Source: Armatimonadota bacterium
Lineage (GTDB): Bacteria > Armatimonadota > SYMT01
Reading direction: 5' to 3'
Length of the DNA stretch: 64,000 nt
Assembly: GCA_046292385.1 (NCBI GenBank)
Contig: JBKBRF010000038.1
Location: 1-64,000, forward strand
The position numbers were made by a program, and so were the translations under genes. This document shows positions 2,226-38,935 of this stretch, one piece after another; within the stretch, counting starts at the first letter, position 1, and every line of letters starts with the position of its first letter. Below the pieces are notes generated by a model, which saw only the letters and a list, made by a program, of their open reading frames with translations, made no database searches and was not told the origin of the DNA.

Positions 2226-3272
2226 TTGCCGGAGACTGCCTTGTCCGCCCCCGCCGCACCCCAGGAGCCAGGCCCGGTCCTGGTTGTCGACCACCAGGCC
2301 GGAGAGCGCCTCGACCGGGCGCTCCAGGAGGAGCTTCCGGAGCTCTCCCGCACCGCCGTGCAGCGGCTGGTGCAGGAGGGCCGCGTCCGGGTGAATGGGC
2401 GAGAGGAGCGGGTCGGTTACAAGCTGCGAGCGGGGGACCGGGTCGAGTGGACCCTGCCCCCACCGGAGCCGGTGGAGTCCCGCATGCAGCCGGAGGAGAT
2501 CCCGCTCGACGTCGTCTTCGAGGATGACGAGCTGCTCGTTATCGATAAGCCGAAGGGACTGGTGGTCCACCCCGCGGCCGGACACGCCTCCGGCACGCTG
2601 GTGAACGCCGTCCTGGCGCACGCGGGCGACGACCTCACCGGGATCGGCGGCGTGGAGCGGCCGGGGATCGTCCACCGGCTGGATCGCGACACCTCCGGCC
2701 TGATCGTCGTGGCCAAGACGGAGCCGGCCTACCGCTCGCTCCAGCGGCAGATCGCGGAGCGCTCCGCCGAGCGCCGGTACGTGGCGGTCGTGCGAGGGCA
2801 GCCGCGGTTCGAACAGGCGACCGTGGATGCGCCGATCGGCCGCCACCCGGGAAACCGGCAGAAGATGGCGGTAATCCCGCCCGGGAGCAGCCACACCCAC
2901 CGGGAAGCGCAGACCGATCTCCGCGTGCTCGACCGGTTCCCGGGGCTGGCGCTGCTGGAGGCGCGCCTGCGCACGGGCCGTACCCACCAGATCCGCGTCC
3001 ACTGCGCCTACATCCACCTGCCGGTGGTGGGCGATTCCACTTACGGCGTCTCCGGCCTCGAGCGCGCCGCCGATCTGGCGCCGCAAGTCCGCGCCGCCAT
3101 CGCCGCGCTGGAGGGCCAGGCGCTCCACGCCTACCGCCTCTCGTTCGATCACCCGACCACCGGCGAGCGGCTGCAGTTCGTGCGCCCTCCGGCTGCCGAC
3201 ATGCAGTCACTCCTCCACGCCCTCGGGAGCACCTGGACCCCGCGCGAAGACGACCCCTGGCCCGGCACCTGA
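2226..3272 (+). CDS. rluD: RluA-family (RluD-like) 23S rRNA pseudouridine synthase; start approximate
   Basis: S4 domain (GERLDRAL..LSRT), DKPKGLVVHP, catalytic HRLDRDTSG, TGRTHQIRVH, QALHAYRL. Confidence 0.93.
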   Translation: MPETALSAPAAPQEPGPVLVVDHQAGERLDRALQEELPELSRTAVQRLVQEGRVRVNGREERVGYKLRAGDRVEWTLPPPEPVESRMQPEEIPLDVVFEDDELLVIDKPKGLVVHPAAGHASGTLVNAVLAHAGDDLTGIGGVERPGIVHRLDRDTSGLIVVAKTEPAYRSLQRQIAERSAERRYVAVVRGQPRFEQATVDAPIGRHPGNRQKMAVIPPGSSHTHREAQTDLRVLDRFPGLALLEARLRTGRTHQIRVHCAYIHLPVVGDSTYGVSGLERAADLAPQVRAAIAALEGQALHAYRLSFDHPTTGERLQFVRPPAADMQSLLHALGSTWTPREDDPWPGT

Positions 3273-29057: not shown

Positions 29058-30323
29058 ATGTCGCTCACCTCGCCTCTCGCCCGCCTCGTCCCGTGGATCC
29101 GGTCCCAGTTCCCGCAGGTCGACCACCTGCGGCAGGGCCGGCCGCGCCTCTACCTCGACAATGCCGCGGGCACGCTGGTGCCGCAGACGGTGGCCGACGC
29201 CATGGCGGACGCGGCGCTCTGGGCGAATCCGCAGCCGGAGCGGAGCTGGCCGGCGGGGCCGGAGACGAAGGCGGTCCACCGACGGGCGCGCGCCCTGCTG
29301 GCCGATTTCCTCAACGCGGCGCCGGAGGACCGGATCTACCTCTCGGAGTCGAGCACCTCGTCGCTCTACAAGCTGCGGGAATCGCTGGAGCCGCGGCTGG
29401 AAGGCGGAAACGTGGTGGTGACCGACTGCGACCACTTCGCCAACATCAGCGCCTGGGAGTGGCGACCGCGCTGGGAGGTACGGCGGGCGCGGATGCTGCC
29501 GGACGGCCACCTGGACGCGGAGCACGCGCTGTCGCTGCTCGACGCGCAGACGCGGGTGGTCGCGGTGACCCAGGCGAGCAACGGCCTCGGCACGATCCTG
29601 AAGCTGGAGGAGCTGATCCCCCGGATTCGGGAGCGGGCGCCGGAAGCGCTGGTGGTGATCGACGCGGTCCACGGGGCGCCGCACCTGCCGCTCGACGCGG
29701 CGCGCCTGGGGGCGGACGCGCTCGCCTTCTCCACCTACAAGCTGTTCGGGCCGAACTGCGGCGTGCTCTGGCTCCGCCGCGACGGCGCGGACGCGCTGGC
29801 GCCGTTCCGGGTGGAGCCGCACACCGACCCGGAGACGCTGCTGGAGTGGGGCACGCTCAGCAACATCAACGTGGCCGGGATTGCCGCGGCGCTGGAGTAC
29901 CTCGACCGCCTCGGCAGCAAGCTGGAGGGCGCCTACGTCGGCCGCCTGGCGGAGTACCCGCGCGAGCGGCGCCGGCTGAAGATCGCGCTGACTGCGATCC
30001 GGGAGTACGAGGAGGAGCTGAGCCGCCGGGTGCTCGAGGAGCTCGCCGGCGTCGAGCGGGTGCGGCTCTTCGGCGTCCGGGAGCCGGAGCGAGCGGCGGA
30101 GCGCGTGCCGACCTTTGCCTTCGAGCTGGAGGGCGTGCCGAACGGCGAGCTGGAGCTGCGGCTCTGGAACGAGGGTGGGCTGCAGGTCGCGATCGGCAGC
30201 CACTACTCCGCCGCGGTGACCCGGGGGCTGGGCCGGGAGGCGCTGGCGCGCGCCAGCTTCGCGCATTACAACAGCCTGGACGAGGCGGCCGCGTTCGTCA
30301 ACGCGCTGCGAAGGTCGAGCTAG
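29058..30323 (+). CDS. Aminotransferase class V, cysteine desulfurase-like protein
   Basis: YLDNAAGT, DHFANISAW, IDAVHGAPH, PLP lysine STYK, RASFAHYN. Confidence 0.88.
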   Translation: MSLTSPLARLVPWIRSQFPQVDHLRQGRPRLYLDNAAGTLVPQTVADAMADAALWANPQPERSWPAGPETKAVHRRARALLADFLNAAPEDRIYLSESSTSSLYKLRESLEPRLEGGNVVVTDCDHFANISAWEWRPRWEVRRARMLPDGHLDAEHALSLLDAQTRVVAVTQASNGLGTILKLEELIPRIRERAPEALVVIDAVHGAPHLPLDAARLGADALAFSTYKLFGPNCGVLWLRRDGADALAPFRVEPHTDPETLLEWGTLSNINVAGIAAALEYLDRLGSKLEGAYVGRLAEYPRERRRLKIALTAIREYEEELSRRVLEELAGVERVRLFGVREPERAAERVPTFAFELEGVPNGELELRLWNEGGLQVAIGSHYSAAVTRGLGREALARASFAHYNSLDEAAAFVNALRRSS

Positions 30324-32262
30324 TCTCGGCCTCGTCCCGGCTCTCCTCCTCCGGCTCCTGCCGGACGCTCAGGCGCGAGATCGCGGCGGCGGCCTGCTCC
30401 GAGATGATGCGGAGCACGCGCAGGTGGTGCTCCGAGAGGACGTGGTAGGCCACCGTGTAGACCGCCAGGACGCCGAGCGGTCGCTCCGGCGGGCCGAGAG
30501 TGACCGCGGCCGCGGCACTCAGCTCCTGTACCTCGTCCGGTCCGAAGCGCCGGGCTACGTCCGGCGCGGCGGAGACGTTCACTCTCGGCCGCGCGTCCCG
30601 CGCCACCGCGCCCGCCACGCCCTCGCCGTCGCCGACCGTCATCCCGAGCAGCTTCTCGCGGTACTTCCCTTCCGCGGCGGCGGCCACCAGGTGGGGCTCC
30701 ACCGGGTCCTTCAGGTAGAGGACGACGGTATCCGCCGGAAGCAGCGAGAGGGTACCCCGCACCACCAGATCTGCCACCGTCTCCAGGCTGCGCGCCCCCG
30801 CCAGCGGGCCGCTCAGCTCCAGCACCGCCGCCATTTCCGCGGAAGCGGCGCTGATCTGCGCCAGCGCGTGCTGGGACTCGTCCGCGCCGCGCTCCGCCGC
30901 CAGCGCCTGCTGCTCCGCCTCCACCCGCGCGATCTCTCGCCGCGCCTCCGGCAGGCTCTCTTCGAAACGGCGGACCAGCTCCGGGTCGAACTGCTTCCCC
31001 GCCCCGTCCCTCAGCACCTGGAGCGCCTCTTCGTGGGAAAGGGCGCGGCGGTAAGGCCGGTTGGAGGTGAGCGCGTCGAAGACGTCGACGATCGAGATGA
31101 TGCGGCCGCCGATCGGGATCTCGTCGCCCTTCAGTCCGCGCGGGTACCCGAGCCCGTCCCACCGCTCGTGGTGGGTCAGCACCACGTCGATCACCGGGAA
31201 GTCGAACGGCACCGGAGAAAGGATCTCCGCGCCGACCTGCACGTGCGTCTGAATGCGCGCGTACTCCTCCGGCGTCAGCTTCCCCGGCTTACCCAGGATG
31301 TGGTCCGGAATGGCCAGCTTCCCGATGTCGTGGACCAGCGCGCCGGTCCGCACCGCCAGCAGCTCCGGCCCCTCCACCCCCGCCGCCTCCGCCAGCGCCA
31401 GGGCGTAGATCTGCACCCGGTTGATGTGCGAGCAGGTGTACGGGTCCTTCGCGTCGATCGCGTTCGCGAGGGTCGAGAGCACCGCCTCGTTCAGCCGCTG
31501 CAGCTCCTCGACGTGCTCCCGCGCCTGCCGCGCGTTCTCCTCGGAAAGGCGCAGCCGATCCTGGTGGAGCTGGTACCAGTAGAAAACCAGCAGCAAGAGG
31601 GGTAAGAGCAAGAGCGCCCGAGGCCCCATGGCTTCGAATGCCAGACGGATCCCTGCCGCCATCGAGGCCGATGCGAAGAATCCTAGTCCGGACCATAGGA
31701 AGTGCTCCCGCCACACCGCGAGCCAGGCCAGGCCACGCTGCCAGGCTATGGCACGAGAGACGCCTAGGCTGTTCACCAGGAAGTAGACGGTGGTGAACAG
31801 GCCCAGCCCAACTACGTCGCGCCACGCGGAAGAACTCACCACTCGTTCAGTCGCGAGATACACCAGTCCGCCGGCACCGCAAGCGAGAGCGGCATTAGCG
31901 GCATTGAACACCACGGTATAGGCCGCAGGACGAAGGAGCCGCAGATGCGTCAATCGCTGCGCGGGACGGACAAAGCTGCCCACCACAGCCCCGACGGCTG
32001 CACAGAGTACCGCCAGAGGGACTCCTTCCAGCATCAGGGCGAGACACACCACGGCGAACGCAGGTGTTATACGGCCCTGGAAGACGGGCAGCTCTGCCTT
32101 CCAGGTACTGAAAAAGACCGAAGCCAGGAACACCACGGTTGCCAGCCACGGCCGTTCAAGCGGAGCCGCATACACGACGAGCACCACGCTGAGCGGCAGA
32201 ATCGCTAAGCCGTGGGCCACGATGTACCATCGCAGATTGGCGGGCAAGTCACGGAAAGACAT
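30298..32262 (-). CDS. Membrane-bound HD-GYP phosphodiesterase with multi-TM sensor domain and C-terminal GAF
   Basis: About 230 hydrophobic N-terminal residues (several TM helices); DAKDPYTCSH, HDIGK, HHERWDGLGYP, DVFDALTSNRPYR; GAF (GEGVAGAVA). Confidence 0.9.
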   Translation of the reverse strand: MSFRDLPANLRWYIVAHGLAILPLSVVLVVYAAPLERPWLATVVFLASVFFSTWKAELPVFQGRITPAFAVVCLALMLEGVPLAVLCAAVGAVVGSFVRPAQRLTHLRLLRPAAYTVVFNAANAALACGAGGLVYLATERVVSSSAWRDVVGLGLFTTVYFLVNSLGVSRAIAWQRGLAWLAVWREHFLWSGLGFFASASMAAGIRLAFEAMGPRALLLLPLLLLVFYWYQLHQDRLRLSEENARQAREHVEELQRLNEAVLSTLANAIDAKDPYTCSHINRVQIYALALAEAAGVEGPELLAVRTGALVHDIGKLAIPDHILGKPGKLTPEEYARIQTHVQVGAEILSPVPFDFPVIDVVLTHHERWDGLGYPRGLKGDEIPIGGRIISIVDVFDALTSNRPYRRALSHEEALQVLRDGAGKQFDPELVRRFEESLPEARREIARVEAEQQALAAERGADESQHALAQISAASAEMAAVLELSGPLAGARSLETVADLVVRGTLSLLPADTVVLYLKDPVEPHLVAAAAEGKYREKLLGMTVGDGEGVAGAVARDARPRVNVSAAPDVARRFGPDEVQELSAAAAVTLGPPERPLGVLAVYTVAYHVLSEHHLRVLRIISEQAAAAISRLSVRQEPEEESRDEAETSSTFAAR

Positions 32263-32560
32263 CACAGACTAGCTTTCGCCTAGCGGGAACGCGGAGCCTC
32301 CTGCAAGGGTGCCGCCGGCACCCATCGCTCGCGAACTTCTTTTTCTCATATGGGATCGGCTAATTGGCACCCCGCTTCTTATCTCGGTTGGAACATGAAT
32401 ACCCGCGTCGCCCGAGAAGCAAGCGATCAACCATACGTATGCTGGGGGAAGGAGGAAGCACCATCGTTAGGGAACTACCTGTGTACGAGCCGCCTAGTTC
32501 TCAGGAGCGCCAGACGCGTGCTCGGACATCCACTGCAGTATCAAATACGGAGAGGCAAAG

Positions 32561-32941
32561 ATGATCTCACGAAGGTCTGTGGTCTCCTGGCTCGCGCTCG
32601 CTCTGCTGGCCGCGACCGGTCTCTTCGCGGCGCGCCCTGCCCTCGCTCATTTCGTCTGGGGTGAAAGCCCCTCTGCCTCCGCCCCAGAGTTGGATAGCGG
32701 CGGCGGCACGATCGGCCTGACCGTGAAGTTCGATAGCGCGGTCAATTACGACCGAGTCGTGACGCTCACGGGGAGCTCCAGCGGACCGTCTTTCAGTATC
32801 CCGCAGAGCGTGACGGTCACCGCGGGGAACACGAGCGCGCCGTACCAGATGACCTATGGATCAGGGAGCTTCGGCTCCGACTGGATCAACATCCACATGT
32901 CTGACGGGGCCGCCAGCAACAACCACCGGCTGTACTACTAA
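32561..32941 (+). CDS. Small secreted beta-rich protein, predicted mature N-terminus HFVWGE
   Basis: GGAGAGG RBS, SRR + hydrophobic signal, ALA cleavage site, IPQSVTVTAGNTSA Ig-like strand pattern, followed by a terminator. Confidence 0.8.
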   Translation: MISRRSVVSWLALALLAATGLFAARPALAHFVWGESPSASAPELDSGGGTIGLTVKFDSAVNYDRVVTLTGSSSGPSFSIPQSVTVTAGNTSAPYQMTYGSGSFGSDWINIHMSDGAASNNHRLYY

Positions 32942-32964
32942 CGCCGGCGGGAGTCTGATCGGCC

Positions 32965-33006
32965 AAAAGAGGGTGGCTCGCCGTTTCGGCAGTGAGCCAC
33001 CCTCTT
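32965..33006. terminator. Bidirectional terminator between the small protein and protease genes
   Basis: AAGAGGGTGGCTC...GAGCCACCCTCTT inverted repeat. Confidence 0.85.
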
Positions 33007-33134
33007 CCGTTTCGGTGATTCCCGCGCTCATGAGCGCTTGGACCTCACGCCGTACTGCCGAAGCCGTCAACACTGTCCAGTGCCAAGACTTAGCGGCTGC
33101 AGCGCCCGTCCTGTATCGTTCGAATCTACTACGA

Positions 33135-34769
33135 TCAATCGGGCCAGCGGGTCGGCTCGCCCCAGAGGATGTGTGCCTCGTTCTCACTGGCAGGCGGTGC
33201 ATCACTCCAGAGCGCCTGATCGCCCCAGAGGGTCGGCTCACCCCACAGAATGTGCGCGTCGTTGGAGGGCGGCGCGTCTTGCGGCATGGCGCCGTAGGCC
33301 CAGATGGCGCCGTCCGACCAGAGCCGCCGGCCGCGCCACTGCTCCCGGTTCCCCCAGAGGGAGCCGCCGCCGCGGACGGAGTGCTGGCCCGCTTGCTCCT
33401 CGCGCTGAACCGTCGGCGAGACCGCCTGGCCCACCGCGTACTCCGGCTCGTCCAGGGCCGCCGGAATGCTCAGGCGTCCCGCGCCGCGGGCATAGGGCTG
33501 GTAGGGCACGGCGGCGTTCCAGTACTTGGTGGCGGAGTGCATCAGGCGCACCTTTACCGTGTCTGGATCGAGGTCCGGCTGCGCCTGCAGCATCAGGGCG
33601 ACCGCCCCGGCCACGGCGGGCGCGGCCATGCTCGTACCGGAAAGCTCCCGGTAGCGGGCGCCGCCCAGCGTCACTCCGTCGGTCGCCGCGGCGCAGCCGA
33701 GCGAGAGGATGCGGTTACCCGGCGCCACCAGGTCCGGCTTGAGCACCTGGTCGACCTGGGTCGGCCCGCGGGACGAGTAGGTGGCCATCTCGTCATCGCT
33801 CGGGTCCAGCGTGAAGTTCGACCGAGTGGCACCGACCGTAATCGCGAGGGGATCGTTCCCCGGCGCGGTGATGCTGCCGTAGCGCACGCCGCTGTCCGGG
33901 TCCTGCGGATCGATCCGCCCCCGGTTGCCCGCGGAGACCACCACCACGATACCGGAGTGCCACACCTTCTCCACGGCGCGGCAGAGCGGGTCCTTCTTGT
34001 AGGACTCCCGTACCGGCTGCCCGAGCGAGAGGTTTGCCACGCGAATGTTCAGGCGGTTCCGCTCGCGCACGCAGAAGTCGAGCCCCTTGATGACAGTGCT
34101 GGCATAGCCGGAGAGGTCGCCGTGCAGCACCTTCACTCCGATGATGTTGGCGCCCGGAGCAATGCCGCGCAGGTCCCGGCCTGCCGCCGCCGCGGCGCCG
34201 CCGTCTCCCGCGGCGATTCCGGCGACGTGCGTGCCGTGGCCGTTGTCGTCGTAGGGAGTGGAGCGGCCGTTCACCAGGTCCACCCAGCCGGTGAGGCGGT
34301 TGACCGGCTGCACCAGGTCCGGGTGCGGCGCCACGCCCGTGTCGAGCACCGCGATGCCCACCCCGGCGCCGCTAAGGCCGGTCGCCTGCCGGACCGCCGT
34401 GGCTCCCACCGCCTCCGCGGTGTAATCGGCCGCGCCCCGGACCGGAAGGTCGGGGGAGATGTGAAGCACGTCCGCCCGCGCCAGGAGAGTCGAGAGGGAC
34501 GAGAGCGGCAGGGTCGCCGCGAAGCCGTCGATCACCTCGAACTGCGCGTGGATCGTGCCGCCGAGCAGGCCCACCAGCCGCAGCAGGAGCGAGGAGGGGG
34601 TGCCCGACGTCTGGACGATCACGCGCGCGGAGCCTCCACTCCCGCCGGGAAGCAGGCCTCCCAGGGTGTTGGAGAGGAGGCTCGCCGTCGCGTCACGGCT
34701 GGCGGAGACGCTCAGCGTGGCGAGCAGCGCCAGGACGGCGAATCCTCGCAGGACGGGGTGAGATCTCAT
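33135..34769 (-). CDS. Secreted S8 subtilisin-like peptidase (AprX-like) with Trp-repeat C-terminal tail
   Basis: Signal + propeptide; triad AVLDTG, HGTHVAG, GTSMAAP; oxyanion SAGN; tail of xLW(G/S)x repeats. Confidence 0.93.
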   Translation of the reverse strand: MRSHPVLRGFAVLALLATLSVSASRDATASLLSNTLGGLLPGGSGGSARVIVQTSGTPSSLLLRLVGLLGGTIHAQFEVIDGFAATLPLSSLSTLLARADVLHISPDLPVRGAADYTAEAVGATAVRQATGLSGAGVGIAVLDTGVAPHPDLVQPVNRLTGWVDLVNGRSTPYDDNGHGTHVAGIAAGDGGAAAAAGRDLRGIAPGANIIGVKVLHGDLSGYASTVIKGLDFCVRERNRLNIRVANLSLGQPVRESYKKDPLCRAVEKVWHSGIVVVVSAGNRGRIDPQDPDSGVRYGSITAPGNDPLAITVGATRSNFTLDPSDDEMATYSSRGPTQVDQVLKPDLVAPGNRILSLGCAAATDGVTLGGARYRELSGTSMAAPAVAGAVALMLQAQPDLDPDTVKVRLMHSATKYWNAAVPYQPYARGAGRLSIPAALDEPEYAVGQAVSPTVQREEQAGQHSVRGGGSLWGNREQWRGRRLWSDGAIWAYGAMPQDAPPSNDAHILWGEPTLWGDQALWSDAPPASENEAHILWGEPTRWPD

Positions 34770-34974
34770 GATCGGCTTCCTTGGGAAAAGAGGCTGCCTG
34801 TAGCTGGCCCTATTATCGGCCAATCATCGGCTTGCTTGAGCGTTACTTTGCAAGGACGGACGTAGAGACGGCGACCGCACACCGCCTGCTCACTAGTTAC
34901 CCGACCGCCCGCTTGATAGAAACCAAAGTTTACCACGTTTTCTACCTGTGGCACTAGCAAGCAGAGGCTTGCCC

Positions 34975-34991
34975 TGCAACTTTCGTGCCAG
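34975..34991 (-). promoter_or_regulatory. Sigma-54 (-24/-12) promoter facing the S8 peptidase gene
   Basis: Minus strand CTGGCACGAAAGTTGCA matches YTGGCACGRNNNTTGCW. Confidence 0.7.
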
Positions 34992-35071
34992 ATAGGTCCG
35001 TCGCAGCCCAGCCACGCCGGGAAGGAGGAATGCTCTGGGATGGGGAAGGCTTCGGCGGAGTATCCTCGCTT

Positions 35072-36382
35072 ATGTCTCTCTGGAATCGTCTCTCTGCCCC
35101 GCACCGGGGCCGCCTGCTGCTCGCCGCCCTGATCGTGGCCGGCTGCTCGACCGCCGCGCTGGTGGATGCCCGCATGGAAAGTCCGTCGGAGCCGCGCTGG
35201 TGGAAGGGCAACCTGCACACCCACTCGCTCTGGAGCGACGGCGATGACTACCCGGAGATGATCGTCGACTGGTACAGGCAGCGCGGCTACCAGTTCCTGG
35301 CGCTCTCGGACCACAACGTCCTCTCCGAAGGGGAGCGCTGGATCGACGCGGAGAAGAACCGCGGCGGGGGAGCGGCGCTGGAGAAGTATCGGAAGCGCTT
35401 CGGCAGCGAGTGGGTGGAGGAGCGGACCGCCGCGGGCAAGACGCAGGTGCGGCTGAAGCCGATCGGGGAGTACCGCCACCTGTTCGAGGAGCCGAACCGC
35501 TTCCTGTTGATCCAGAGTGAAGAGATCACCGACTCGTTCCAGCGCAAGCCGATCCACATGAACGCGCACAACCTCCGGGAGCTGATCAAGCCGCAGGGCG
35601 GCAAGAGCGTGACGGAGGTGATGCAGAACAACGTGAACGCGGTGCTGGAGCAGCGCCGGCGCACGGGGCAGCCGATGTTTCCCCACCTGAACCATCCCAA
35701 CTTCGGCTGGGCGGTGACGGCGGAGGACATGCTCCCGCTGCGGGGCGAGCGCTTCTTCGAGGTCTACAACGGCCATCCGGCGGTCTACAACTACGGCGAC
35801 GACCAGCACGCCGGCACGGAGCGGATCTGGGACATCCTGCTCTCCCAGCGGCTGGCGGAGCCGGGCGGCGAGGTGATGTACGGGCTCGCCACGGACGACT
35901 CCCACCAGTACCACTCCAGCTCCATCAAGCTCAGCAACCCCGGCCGCGGCTGGGTCACGGTGCGGGCGCGGAAGCTGACCCCGGAGGCGATCATCCACGC
36001 GATGGAGGCGGGGGAATTCTACGCTTCCACCGGCGTGGAGCTGGCCGACGTCTCCCGGGAGACCTCTCGCTACGCCCTCAAGATCAAGGGAGAGCGCGGC
36101 GTCAGCTACCGCACGCAGTTCATCGGCACGCGGAAGGGCTTCGACCGCACCAGCACCCCGGTCCGCGGGAAGGACGGTCAGCCGCTGCCGGTCACCCGCC
36201 GCTACAGCCGGGAAATCGGCGTGGTGCTGGCCGAAGTGCCCGGCACCTCCCCCACTTACACGCTAAAAGGCGACGAGCTGTACGTCCGCGCCAAGGTAAT
36301 CTCCACCCGGCCGCAGCAAAACCCGTTCCGGGAAGGCGACACCGAGGTAGCGTGGACCCAGCCGCTGGTCCCATCCCGATAG
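35072..36382 (+). CDS. Secreted PHP-domain metallohydrolase (histidinol-phosphatase-like)
   Basis: WWKGNLHTHSLWSDG, LSDHN, NHPNF, EVYNGH, TDDSH. Confidence 0.85.
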   Translation: MSLWNRLSAPHRGRLLLAALIVAGCSTAALVDARMESPSEPRWWKGNLHTHSLWSDGDDYPEMIVDWYRQRGYQFLALSDHNVLSEGERWIDAEKNRGGGAALEKYRKRFGSEWVEERTAAGKTQVRLKPIGEYRHLFEEPNRFLLIQSEEITDSFQRKPIHMNAHNLRELIKPQGGKSVTEVMQNNVNAVLEQRRRTGQPMFPHLNHPNFGWAVTAEDMLPLRGERFFEVYNGHPAVYNYGDDQHAGTERIWDILLSQRLAEPGGEVMYGLATDDSHQYHSSSIKLSNPGRGWVTVRARKLTPEAIIHAMEAGEFYASTGVELADVSRETSRYALKIKGERGVSYRTQFIGTRKGFDRTSTPVRGKDGQPLPVTRRYSREIGVVLAEVPGTSPTYTLKGDELYVRAKVISTRPQQNPFREGDTEVAWTQPLVPSR

Positions 36383-36433: not shown

Positions 36434-38935
36434 GTGAGCGAGCGGTCAGAAGAACGCATCCTGATCCTCACCCCGGTGGGGGATCCCGACCTCGGGGTGG
36501 GCCCCCTGCTGCGCGCCGGCACCGCCCTCCCGGTTCAGGACTTCCAGGACCTCGAGCGCCTCTCCGCATCGCTCGACGCCGGGGTCGCGGCGGTACTGCT
36601 GACCGGCGCGTGGGACCGCTCTCCGGGCGCGGAGCGCTTTCAAGCGTGGGTCGAACGCCAGCCGGCCTGGTCGGAGCTTCCGATTCTGGTGGTCGTCTCC
36701 GGCGACGATCGCACCCGCTCCTCCCGGGCCTGGCGGCGCCTCGGCAACGTCACGCTGCTCGAGCCGCCGCTGCGAGACTCCACTCTCTCCACCGCCGTGC
36801 AGGCTGCGCTGCGCTCGCGCCGCCGACAGTACCAGATCCGGGAGCACCTGCGGGAGCGCGAGGCAGCCGCGGCGGCGCTCCGCGAGAGCGAGGAGCGACT
36901 CCGCTTCTCACTCGAAGCGGGAAACCTGGGCTTCTGGCAGCACGACCTTCAGACCGATCAGCTCCTCTGCTCTGAGCGCTGTAAGGCCCACTTCGGGCGC
37001 CCGCCTCACGAGCCGCTCTCCCACGAGGAGATCCTCTCGATCGTGCATCCGGACGACCGGGAGCGTGCCCGGCTGACGATCGGCCGGGCCGTGAGTGCGG
37101 GCGAGAGCTACGTGCTGGAATACCGCGTGGTCTGGCGGGACGGAAGCGTGCACTGGCTGATGGTGAGGGGACGGGCCAGCTACGACGACGCCGGACAGCC
37201 GGTGAGCACGTTCGGCGTGACGCTCGACGTGACGCAGCGAATGGAGGCGGAGCGTCGTCAGGCGCAGCAAGCCGAGCGGCTGCGGCTCCTCTCGGAAAGC
37301 GCCGGGCGGCTCCTGGCGGCGGAGAGCCGGGACGACCTGGTGGCAGAGCTCTTCTCGCGCGTCCGGGAGAGCCTGGGCCTCGACCTCTACCTCTACCATG
37401 CGGCAGACGCCGACCGTGGAACGCTCCGGCTGGGCTCCTGCGCCGGAGTACCGGAAGGGGTGGCAAGCCGGCTCCGGGAGCCGTCGCTCGGTGAGGGCAG
37501 CTCCCGAGGCGAATCCGGGACGAGAGCCCCACTGACGCGCGCAGAGGTCGAGACCGCGGCGGTTGCGTGGGCAGGATTGTTGAGCGAGGCGGGAGTGCGC
37601 GCCTTCACCTGCCAGCCGCTGCTGGTGGGGGATCGGCTGCTCGGAACCCTCGCGTTCGGCGCGCGAGACCAGTCGGAGTTCTCGGACGAGCAGATCGCGT
37701 TTCTTCGGACGGTCTGTGACTACGTCGCCATCGCCATGGAGCGCGTGCGGGTGGAGGAAAGCCTGCGGGAGAGCTCGCGGCGTAAGGACGAGTTCGTCGC
37801 CATGCTGGCGCACGAGTTGCGGAATCCGCTGGCCCCGGTCACGAACGCGCTGGAGATCATGCGCGCGAGACCCGGCCGGGAGACCGGAGAGCGCGCACGG
37901 AAAGTGATCGACCGCCAGATCCGCCACATGACGCGGCTAATCGACGATCTCCTCGATATCTCCCGCGTCAACACCGGAAAGATCACACTCAGGCGCGAGC
38001 GCCTGGACCTCTCCGAGGCGCTCCGGCAGGCGGTGGAAGGAGTGCGCGGCCTCGTCGCGCAGGCGGGTCACACGCTGGAGATGACGCTGCCGGGCCAACC
38101 GGTCTGGGTAGAGGTCGATCCGGTGCGCCTGGAGCAGCTGGTGAGTAACCTGCTCAGCAACTCCGCCAAGTACACCGAGAGCGGCGGCCGGATCGAGGTG
38201 ACGCTGAGTTCGGAGGGCTCCTCTGCCCGGATCAGCGTCCGCGATACCGGGATCGGGATCGGCCCCGAGCTGCTGCCGCGGGTGTTCGACCTGTTCACCC
38301 AGGGCGAGCGCGGGCTCGACCGGTCCCAGGGTGGGCTCGGCCTCGGCCTGGCACTGGTGAGCAGCATCGCGCGGCTGCATGGCGGGGAGGTGGAGGCGCG
38401 GAGTGCGGGGCACGGGCAGGGTAGCGAGTTCGTGGTCACCCTCCCCCTCGCGCCCGCCGCGGCGCCCGAGAGCCTGCCGGCTCCGGTTACTGAGCTGCCG
38501 TCACGCCGCCGACCACCGCTCGCGGTTCCCCCTGCTTGCCGGCTGCTTGTCGTCGACGACAACCGCGACTCCGCGGAGACCCTGGCGGAGCTGGCGCAGC
38601 TCTGGGGCTTCGAGATCGACACTGCCTACGATGGAGTGTCGGCACTCCATCGCGCCTCGGCATGGCTGCCAGAGCTGATACTCCTGGACATCGGGATGCC
38701 CGGCCTGAGCGGATATGAAGTGGCGCGCCAGCTTCGACAGGACGCTCGCTTCTCGAACGCCACCCTGATCGCCGTGAGCGGCTATGGACAGTCGGAAGAC
38801 CTGGAGCGTTCCCGCGCTGCCGGTTTCGACCACCATGTGGTCAAGCCGGTCGATCCTGGCAAGCTCGAGCGACTGCTCCGCGACGCGGCGGAGCAGCGAA
38901 CTGGCCGCAGCGGCGAGAGCAGCCAGCTTCCCTGA
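36434..38935 (+). CDS. Hybrid sensor histidine kinase (pseudo-REC, PAS, GAF, HisKA, HATPase, REC)
   Basis: [20 protein letters not shown]-box, [30 protein letters not shown]. Confidence 0.95.

Follow-up and report, generated by a model that had tools for sequence, protein, structure and literature searches.

A tryptophan hexapeptide shared by a subtilase tail and a small exported protein points to a protease-linked signalling unit in an Armatimonadota bacterium

Why should the C-terminal tail of a secreted protease and the N-terminus of a small exported protein encoded next to it carry the same six-residue unit, and what part might a membrane sensor encoded on the other side of the small-protein gene play? 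These questions are raised by a locus on contig JBKBRF010000038.1 of an Armatimonadota bacterium (genome of 7,043,135 bp), of which positions 1-64,000 of the forward strand, hereafter the window, were analysed. In this window the gene for the small protein lies between those for a subtilase of family S8 and for the sensor. The original prediction for the locus, made from its letters, saw here a candidate peptide-signalling system in which cleavage after Ala would free units beginning with His as ligands of a membrane HD-GYP receptor. As set out below, the locus points to a protease-linked signalling unit that has not been described. The features on which the argument depends are the following.

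30298..32265, minus strand: MASE9-like/HD-GYP/GAF membrane sensor, 655 amino acids (aa), assigned by Pfam HD_5 and GAF_2
31543..32265, minus strand: MASE9-like membrane domain of the sensor, aa 1 to ~240, assigned by a sub-cut-off Pfam MASE9 score and by homologues
32561..32941, plus strand: exported small protein with an immunoglobulin (Ig)-like fold, 126 aa, stop codon included in the span, assigned by translation, homologues and an AlphaFold2 (AF2) model
32561-32647, plus strand: predicted signal peptide of the small protein, assigned by the -3/-1 rule and the homologue alignment
32648..32665, plus strand: HFVWGE tag, the predicted mature N-terminus of the small protein
from ~32696, plus strand: beta-sandwich of the small protein in the AF2 model
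33135..34769, minus strand: S8 subtilase, 544 aa from the likely ATG at 34769, with a predicted signal peptide, assigned by Pfam Peptidase_S8
33138..33371, minus strand: C-terminal tail of the S8 protein, 78 aa of tryptophan (Trp) hexapeptide units

The tag shared by the two exported proteins is not a product of chance. The pattern H[FILVM][FILVM]WGE was sought in a six-frame translation of the genome (61,497 stop-to-stop open reading frames, ORFs, of at least 60 aa) and yielded three matches, all of them at this locus. The sharing of A-H[FI][VL]WGE by three copies, as first noticed in the original prediction, is therefore real and non-random, and its coordinates were all given correctly. The tag is encoded by CAT TTC GTC TGG GGT GAA in the small-protein gene and by CAC ATT CTG TGG GGT GAG in the tail; since the codons differ between the copies, no recent copying of DNA has taken place.

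The small protein starts with MISRRSVVSWLALALLAATGLFAARPALA, followed by the predicted cleavage site and then by HFVWGES; the signal-peptidase site was assigned by the -3/-1 rule together with an alignment with five homologues. Pfam gave no match to the protein and NCBIfam nothing specific. Searched against 1.84 billion representative sequences, a profile built on the mature protein gave 372 matches at E<=0.001, mostly to single Ig-like repeats of giant proteins, and two full-length single-domain relatives were found among the matches listed. When 5.8 billion proteins were searched by profile, the family came to six members in total, the window protein included. In all six a tail-type unit directly follows the predicted signal-peptidase site (AxA or AVS), as listed here with the end of the signal peptide first and the mature start second.

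Window protein: ALA, then HFVWGE
G004 member: AAA, then QALWSD
P0013: AQA, then QALWSD
P0083: AWA, then QALWGD
P0153: AFA, then QALWID
P0154: AVS, then QALWSD

The homologues share 27-54% identity, and the position of the tag is the same in each of the six; the proposal that signal peptidase exposes the tag is thus supported across the family by the predicted cleavage sites. The emphasis on His at the start of the unit did not survive the comparison. Five of the six small proteins begin with Gln, and in a ~93%-identical relative of the window S8 the first HILWGE reads SFIWGE and the next unit PALWAD (as read from the listed differences alone). Contigs of this relative, tail included, occur in RNA-library run X11, which attests to presence in the library and does not by itself prove transcription; over the small-protein gene this run has no contig, an absence that is uninformative in either direction. 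An N-terminal His acting in a metal-binding 'histidine brace' was rejected on the same two observations, the Gln of five members and the Ser that opens the tail unit of the close relative. A search of 401 genomes of the phylum for the pattern AxA-QALWxD returned five matches, against two for a control pattern. The five comprised the known G004 gene, a site within a G000 tail and three unrelated occurrences, two of them within long ORFs without an upstream signal peptide and one in a 10-residue frame.

Gene context could be obtained for two of the six family members: scans of metagenomes and genomes gave the contig from genome G004 in addition to the window, the other four being without retrievable context. 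At both loci the adjoining S8 protein carries the matching unit, HFVWGE being accompanied by HILWGE in the window and QALWSD by (QALWSD)x15 in G004, where the small-protein gene is located directly upstream of the S8 gene (contig G004:C133). The nearest orthologue of the window S8 (G004:C458, 58% identity) retains QA[LV]W[SAG]D and the other five small proteins retain QALW; therefore, both partners changed to H-h-h-W-G-E (h, hydrophobic) in the lineage of the window. Comparison of these sequences shows that the unit of the small protein has evidently changed together with that of the neighbouring tail, and the change to H-h-h-W-G-E is, to judge from the two loci, a single event of co-change, but a specific one.

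These observations bear directly on the possibility that the tag has no function, the N-terminus of the small protein being either a captured fragment of a tail or a chance match. The unit and the D/G/S-P that follows it do resemble the end of a tail block (QALWSDDP...), and the segment could have a common descent. Such an origin is nevertheless at odds with the confinement of the pattern to this locus, the different codons of the copies, the constancy of the position in all six diverged homologues and the lineage-specific change on both proteins, and we consider a functionless tag very improbable.

At G004:C133 (L103) a 206-nt region is duplicated directly upstream of the S8 gene and of the small-protein gene (2121-2326 and 2938-3141; 92% identity). 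The G004 genome holds these two copies alone, and the region is not common to the upstream regions of the window. It gave no match in Rfam, and scans of it for sigma-70 sites and terminators were also empty. The duplication suggests that the S8 and small-protein genes of G004 might be under common control.

Other reading frames with tag-like sequences were noted near S8 genes. Downstream of S8 on G004:C133 (L009; minus strand, 1-171), an ORF that begins like a signal anchor continues to ...SQMLWGDGP and runs off the end of the contig. At G000:C17 (L102; 52530-52715) an ORF of 61 aa, which overlaps the stop codon of an S8 gene with a (QALWSD)n tail, has ...QVLWSD as its final residues; it possesses a signal peptide and a possible lipobox (..AAGC), displays a weak coding signal (GC3-GC2, the difference in GC content between third and second codon positions, of 0.16) and may be a remnant. 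No further tagged neighbours were seen at the remaining S8-tail loci, for which the flanks covered were mostly +/-1.5 kb.

In the AF2 model (mean predicted local distance difference test score, pLDDT, of 78.3) the small protein forms a seven-strand Ig-like beta sandwich, joined to the tag by a linker of low confidence. Foldseek searches with this model retrieved generic Ig/Fn3-like structures (TM-score up to 0.53), and the matches in the protein atlas were equally generic. C-terminal domains of plant subtilases were among the Foldseek matches, and kinship with them was not accepted; no inhibitors were found among the matches listed. Prediction of a complex between residues 116-544 of S8 and residues 30-126 of the small protein gave a score of 0.00, which counts neither for nor against binding.

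The S8 protein itself has the hallmarks of its family. It matches Pfam Peptidase_S8 (PF00082) with an E value of 2.9e-53 and 181.5 bits (gathering cut-off 21.8), and its catalytic residues D143, H178 and S380 as well as the oxyanion residue N282 (numbering of the 544-aa protein) are invariant in an alignment of 15 paralogues. Its reading frame is open further back, to a TTG at 34823 (ORF 33135-34823, minus strand). The tail closes with ...NDA-HILWGE-PTLWGD-QALWSD-APPASENEA-HILWGE-PTRWPD, the two HILWGE units being encoded at 33237-33254 and 33156-33173, and weaker units in the same six-residue register (SLWGN, EQWRG, RLWSD, AIWAY) precede these farther up the tail.

A genome search located 28 loci for S8 paralogues in six of the seven genomes of the same bacterial family. 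Nearly all of the paralogues terminate in tandem Trp hexapeptides, among them (QALWGD)n, (QALWSD)n, (SVLWGD)n, (TVLWGD)n, (QMTWGD)n and (QVVWSD)n. In most tails a unit follows the Asp of the preceding one, so that cleavage after Ala, the cue supposed in the original prediction, does not apply generally. The DNA of the repeats is far more varied than the peptide: the 17 units of the G004:C133 tail exist in three peptide versions and 13 DNA versions, 15 of them being QALWSD with Ser encoded by AGC, AGT and TCC, and in other tails the copies of an identical unit and their DNA versions number 12 and 11, 16 and 12, 6 and 6, and 8 and 6. Because identical units are spelled in so many synonymous ways, every residue of each unit must be under selection; this pattern of codons shows what appears to be strong selection on each Trp unit at the level of the peptide. 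Such conservation would suit one common binding site for each unit better than a purely structural repeat.

The ends of the tails vary in other respects. Most paralogues finish with a common h-x-G-D motif (ISGD, VVGD, HGD, IEGD and others), sometimes with a few residues after it, a motif that might serve in sorting or processing; the window S8 ends in TRWPD. Two tails of genome G005 (C1, L023, and C4, L028) have, within the Trp units or behind them, long low-complexity stretches rich in Tyr, Pro, Asp and Glu (YYEPYYDP..., PPPPDDYY...).

What, then, might bind the units? They could associate with one another or with a polymer of the envelope, as a Trp ladder or solenoid that keeps the protease on the cell surface or assembles it there. 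The array would be joined or capped by the small protein, and the proximity of the sensor gene would reflect regulation only. Tandem arrays of variable length on many paralogues and the h-x-G-D motif shared by most tails are in keeping with this, and a single unit placed terminally, as on the small protein, would suit strand addition. Structural repeats, however, usually tolerate change at exposed positions, whereas all six residues are held here, and a single unit would give little avidity. Pfam also shows no hexapeptide-repeat family on the S8 protein: the tail had no match, the hexapeptide-repeat family PF00132 included, and the whole protein gave Peptidase_S8 alone (E<=0.01). A left-handed beta-helix was rejected for the tail for this want of Pfam support. 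Association or anchoring is placed third among the readings and seems to us unlikely.

The third gene encodes a multi-transmembrane sensor with an intact HD-GYP domain and a GAF domain, just as originally proposed. Pfam HD_5 (PF13487) matches aa 266-430 with an E value of 1.2e-42 and GAF_2 matches aa 491-629 with 2e-9; the HD-GYP motifs are complete (HD at 312, GYP at 373, HHExxDGxGYP at 363-375), and the predicted output is hydrolysis of cyclic di-GMP (c-di-GMP). Residues 1-235 comprise ~7-8 hydrophobic segments (aa 13-233) connected by loops of ~12 aa or less. According to the available part of the preprint by Galperin and Chou (10.1101/2021.11.05.467447), MASE9 is an N-terminal domain of several transmembrane segments with short loops, fused to HD-GYP, GGDEF or other outputs, which has conserved aromatic and Asn/Ser positions and for which intramembrane ligand binding is proposed. 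The window sensor resembles such proteins in that its homologues match Pfam MASE9 (PF20972; E<=0.1 in 11 of 17 aligned homologues, the best at 4.2e-8), its own copy remaining below the cut-off (18.9 bits, cut-off 24.3). In the alignment of the membrane domains N121, N165 and W191 are invariant and F120 is nearly so. These features suggest that the membrane domain of the sensor is MASE9-like.

The first 250 residues of the sensor were searched in 41 related genomes, which gave 21 loci in the seven genomes of the bacterial family. At nine of these 21 a Trp-tailed S8 gene adjoins the sensor gene (G000 C38, C44 and C30; G005 C9, C1 and C8; G001 C5; G004 C44; G002 C17), and it does so across varied output domains; one more sensor of the family begins 171 nt from the end of its contig, its neighbour lying beyond. 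As a rule the two genes share a strand, S8 coming first, and at four loci they are 21-60 nt apart. When 151 genomes of the phylum were searched, 23 of the best 30 loci proved to belong to other families, and two of the 23 (G094 and G009, belonging to two other families) have a Trp-tailed S8 gene directly upstream. The outputs of the paired sensors are HD-GYP, HD-GYP with GGDEF, or HisKA/HATPase, and since the output varies between the pairs, the conserved partner is the membrane domain. The HD-GYP domain, after which the original prediction had named the receptor, gives way in this respect to the MASE9-like domain, paralogous pairs using a histidine kinase or HD-GYP with GGDEF. Gene neighbourhoods thus show the tailed S8 and the MASE9-like sensor as what is evidently an inherited gene pair with a variable output. 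The predicted linkage of three genes is accordingly supported in part: it held for this pair, and the small protein, seen at two of the 29 S8-tail loci, has the character of an accessory.

Some of the paired loci have peculiarities of their own. At G002:C17 (L095; 6223-6519) the end of a tail alone, with ~15 perfect SMLWTD units, is present at the edge of the contig, directly upstream of a 901-aa MASE9-like HD-GYP protein. A prepilin-like gene lies between S8 and the sensor at G005:C8 (L083; 5800-6603; Pfam N_methyl and DUF1559) and, judged by a similar sequence motif alone, at G005:C9 (L081; 7044-7736).

The pairing raises the possibility that the Trp unit is a ligand of the MASE9 membrane domain. 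The tail would be a polyvalent ligand, either in tethered form or as hexapeptides cut from it, a second, N-terminally exposed ligand would be carried by the small protein, and binding in or at the membrane would switch the HD-GYP domain or histidine kinase. That the S8-sensor pair is kept while the output changes suits the protease as an input better than as a regulated target, and identical units with scrambled codons are to be expected of a multi-copy peptide precursor. The small-protein gene of the window, moreover, sits between the other two. The short outer loops of MASE9 would also agree with a ligand bound within the membrane, as proposed in the available text of its describers (10.1101/2021.11.05.467447). 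Against a ligand of MASE9 speak 20 of the 29 S8-tail loci, which have no MASE9 gene within the flank examined; five of these 20 have other signalling genes (TPR kinases at three, NarL-type regulators at two). The second tagged small protein, that of G004:C133, likewise has the genes of a cytoplasmic TPR kinase and of an ABC exporter as neighbours, with no MASE9 sensor. Finally, the covariation of motifs anticipated in the original prediction was found between tail and small protein at both known loci, but divergence of the S8 catalytic domain and of the sensor transmembrane domain was not significantly correlated over eight pairs (Mantel r 0.20, a value attained in 1023 of 5000 permutations). 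We place this explanation second, as possible but rather doubtful. Much the same reserve applies to its extension, by which the Trp hexapeptide is an encoded, co-evolving peptide 'address' read inside the membrane by MASE9, and paralogous pairs with different units would be private channels to c-di-GMP or two-component outputs; we offer it as a speculative option.

At G004:C133 (L103; 5565-7511) the exporter is a fusion of transmembrane and ATPase parts (648 aa) which, with the TPR histidine kinase, lies upstream of the small protein and S8. A TPR kinase of this type also precedes S8 in G000:C17 and G005:C4.

The protease is the only constant neighbour of the tagged small protein, a MASE9 sensor being found at one of the two loci. 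Because the protease is thus the tag's only constant companion, we put first a module in which the cleft of the protease reads the Trp unit as a tag, the N-terminus of the small protein serves for docking and the sensor acts as the signalling partner of the protease; this is a tentative preference, for a mechanism that could well prove wrong. The locus would encode a three-part module of the cell envelope, made up of a tailed, exported S8 protease, an exported Ig-like protein with one unit and a MASE9-type intramembrane sensor with HD-GYP and GAF domains. The Trp unit would serve as a recognition tag for the protease's own substrate-binding cleft, and the tail would be a built-in array of identical sites for recognition or cleavage. 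The free N-terminal unit of the small protein would dock in the cleft as a mimic of the product, and the docked protein would either inhibit the protease in the periplasm like a 'safety catch', much as AprI inhibits alkaline protease, or serve it as a privileged substrate. The sensor would then report the state of the protease or its tail (intact, bound or cut) to the turnover of c-di-GMP.

AprI provides the known precedent for docking of this kind. In the available part of the report on AprA/AprI (PMC4070987), the N-terminus of AprI, produced by signal peptidase, enters the active site of the alkaline protease AprA, and N-terminal fusions abolish inhibition; AprA of Pseudomonas aeruginosa (serralysin family) also resembles the window S8 as a secreted protease with C-terminal tandem repeats encoded beside a small protein with a signal peptide. 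AprA differs from the serine protease and Trp hexapeptides seen here in being a zinc metalloprotease with Ca-binding RTX nonapeptide repeats. No kinship of the small protein with AprI was apparent in Pfam, in NCBIfam or among the listed Foldseek matches, its fold being Ig-like. To our knowledge, the N-terminus of AprI is not a copy of a repeat unit of AprA, and we know of no membrane sensor partner of AprA/AprI.

Several points tell against recognition of the tag by the cleft of the protease. The evidence of covariation comes from two loci and one event of co-change. The small protein is rare: in the 401 genomes of the phylum its profile found full-length members in G000 and G004 and none in the other 399, the remaining matches being single Ig-like repeats of large proteins, and a tagged small protein accompanies two of the 29 S8-tail loci (flanks as above). 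Acceptance of Asp or Glu in the cleft at the boundary of a unit would be unusual for subtilases. The fold of AprI is a barrel, and the modelled seven-strand sandwich of the small protein is not. The absence of significant co-divergence between S8 and the sensor counts here as it does for a MASE9 ligand.

Known systems that couple a protease or an accessory protein to a sensor also differ from this locus. In the lantibiotic NisP/NisK and the Agr systems a processing protease is encoded together with a multi-transmembrane sensor that has little extracellular domain, and there is a separate precursor gene along with genes for modification or export. Here, unlike in those systems, the repeated peptide belongs to the protease itself; no dedicated precursor or modification genes were seen in the flanks in the window or at the paralogous loci, an ABC exporter being present upstream at G004:C133 alone. 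In LiaF-LiaS and BceAB-BceS the sensor lacks an outer domain proper, and its input comes from the product of a neighbouring gene. The accessory in those cases is a membrane protein or a transporter, whereas here it is a secreted protease with a repeat tail.

The intergenic regions of the locus have two features of possible regulatory interest.

32266..32560, no strand: divergent intergenic region of 295 bp between the sensor gene and the small-protein gene, from the ORF coordinates
32967..33006, no strand: perfect inverted repeat of 13 nt, located where the small-protein and S8 genes converge

The former may be a shared control region of the sensor and small-protein genes, and the latter is a possible two-way terminator. 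Simple motif scans found no sigma-70-like sites or terminators in 30000-35300, and Rfam gave no match in the same interval; the inverted repeat was missed by the terminator scan because it has no T run. Beyond the S8 gene follow a PHP/CehA-like metallohydrolase (34985-36382), whose HTHSLWSDG is an ordinary PHP motif and not the tag, and, on that other side of S8, an 833-aa hybrid histidine kinase (36434-38935). Near-identical DNA covering the small-protein gene and its flanks is present in soil and root metagenome contigs from other studies (X2, X3 and X6; 0 differences over 307-618 nt).

Literature searches found no paper that deals with the motif strings, Trp-repeat tails of subtilases or MASE9 together with proteases, and the words protease, peptidase and subtilisin do not occur in the text of the MASE9 preprint (10.1101/2021.11.05.467447). 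The components are of known kinds (subtilase, Ig-like domain, MASE9 and HD-GYP); it is their coupling, and most of all the use in trans of a co-evolving tag, that is undescribed. With a six-residue unit that is used in trans and has changed together with the tail, the locus offers a handle both on the function of the Trp tails and on the ligand of MASE9, and makes the role of the tail approachable with short peptides, a single protease, a protein of 97 residues and a single sensor. If the unit is indeed a signal read by MASE9, peptide signalling of this protease-coupled kind would form a new class, MASE9 would have its first proposed ligand, and bacteria would possess a new route by which extracellular proteolysis is coupled to c-di-GMP and two-component signalling.

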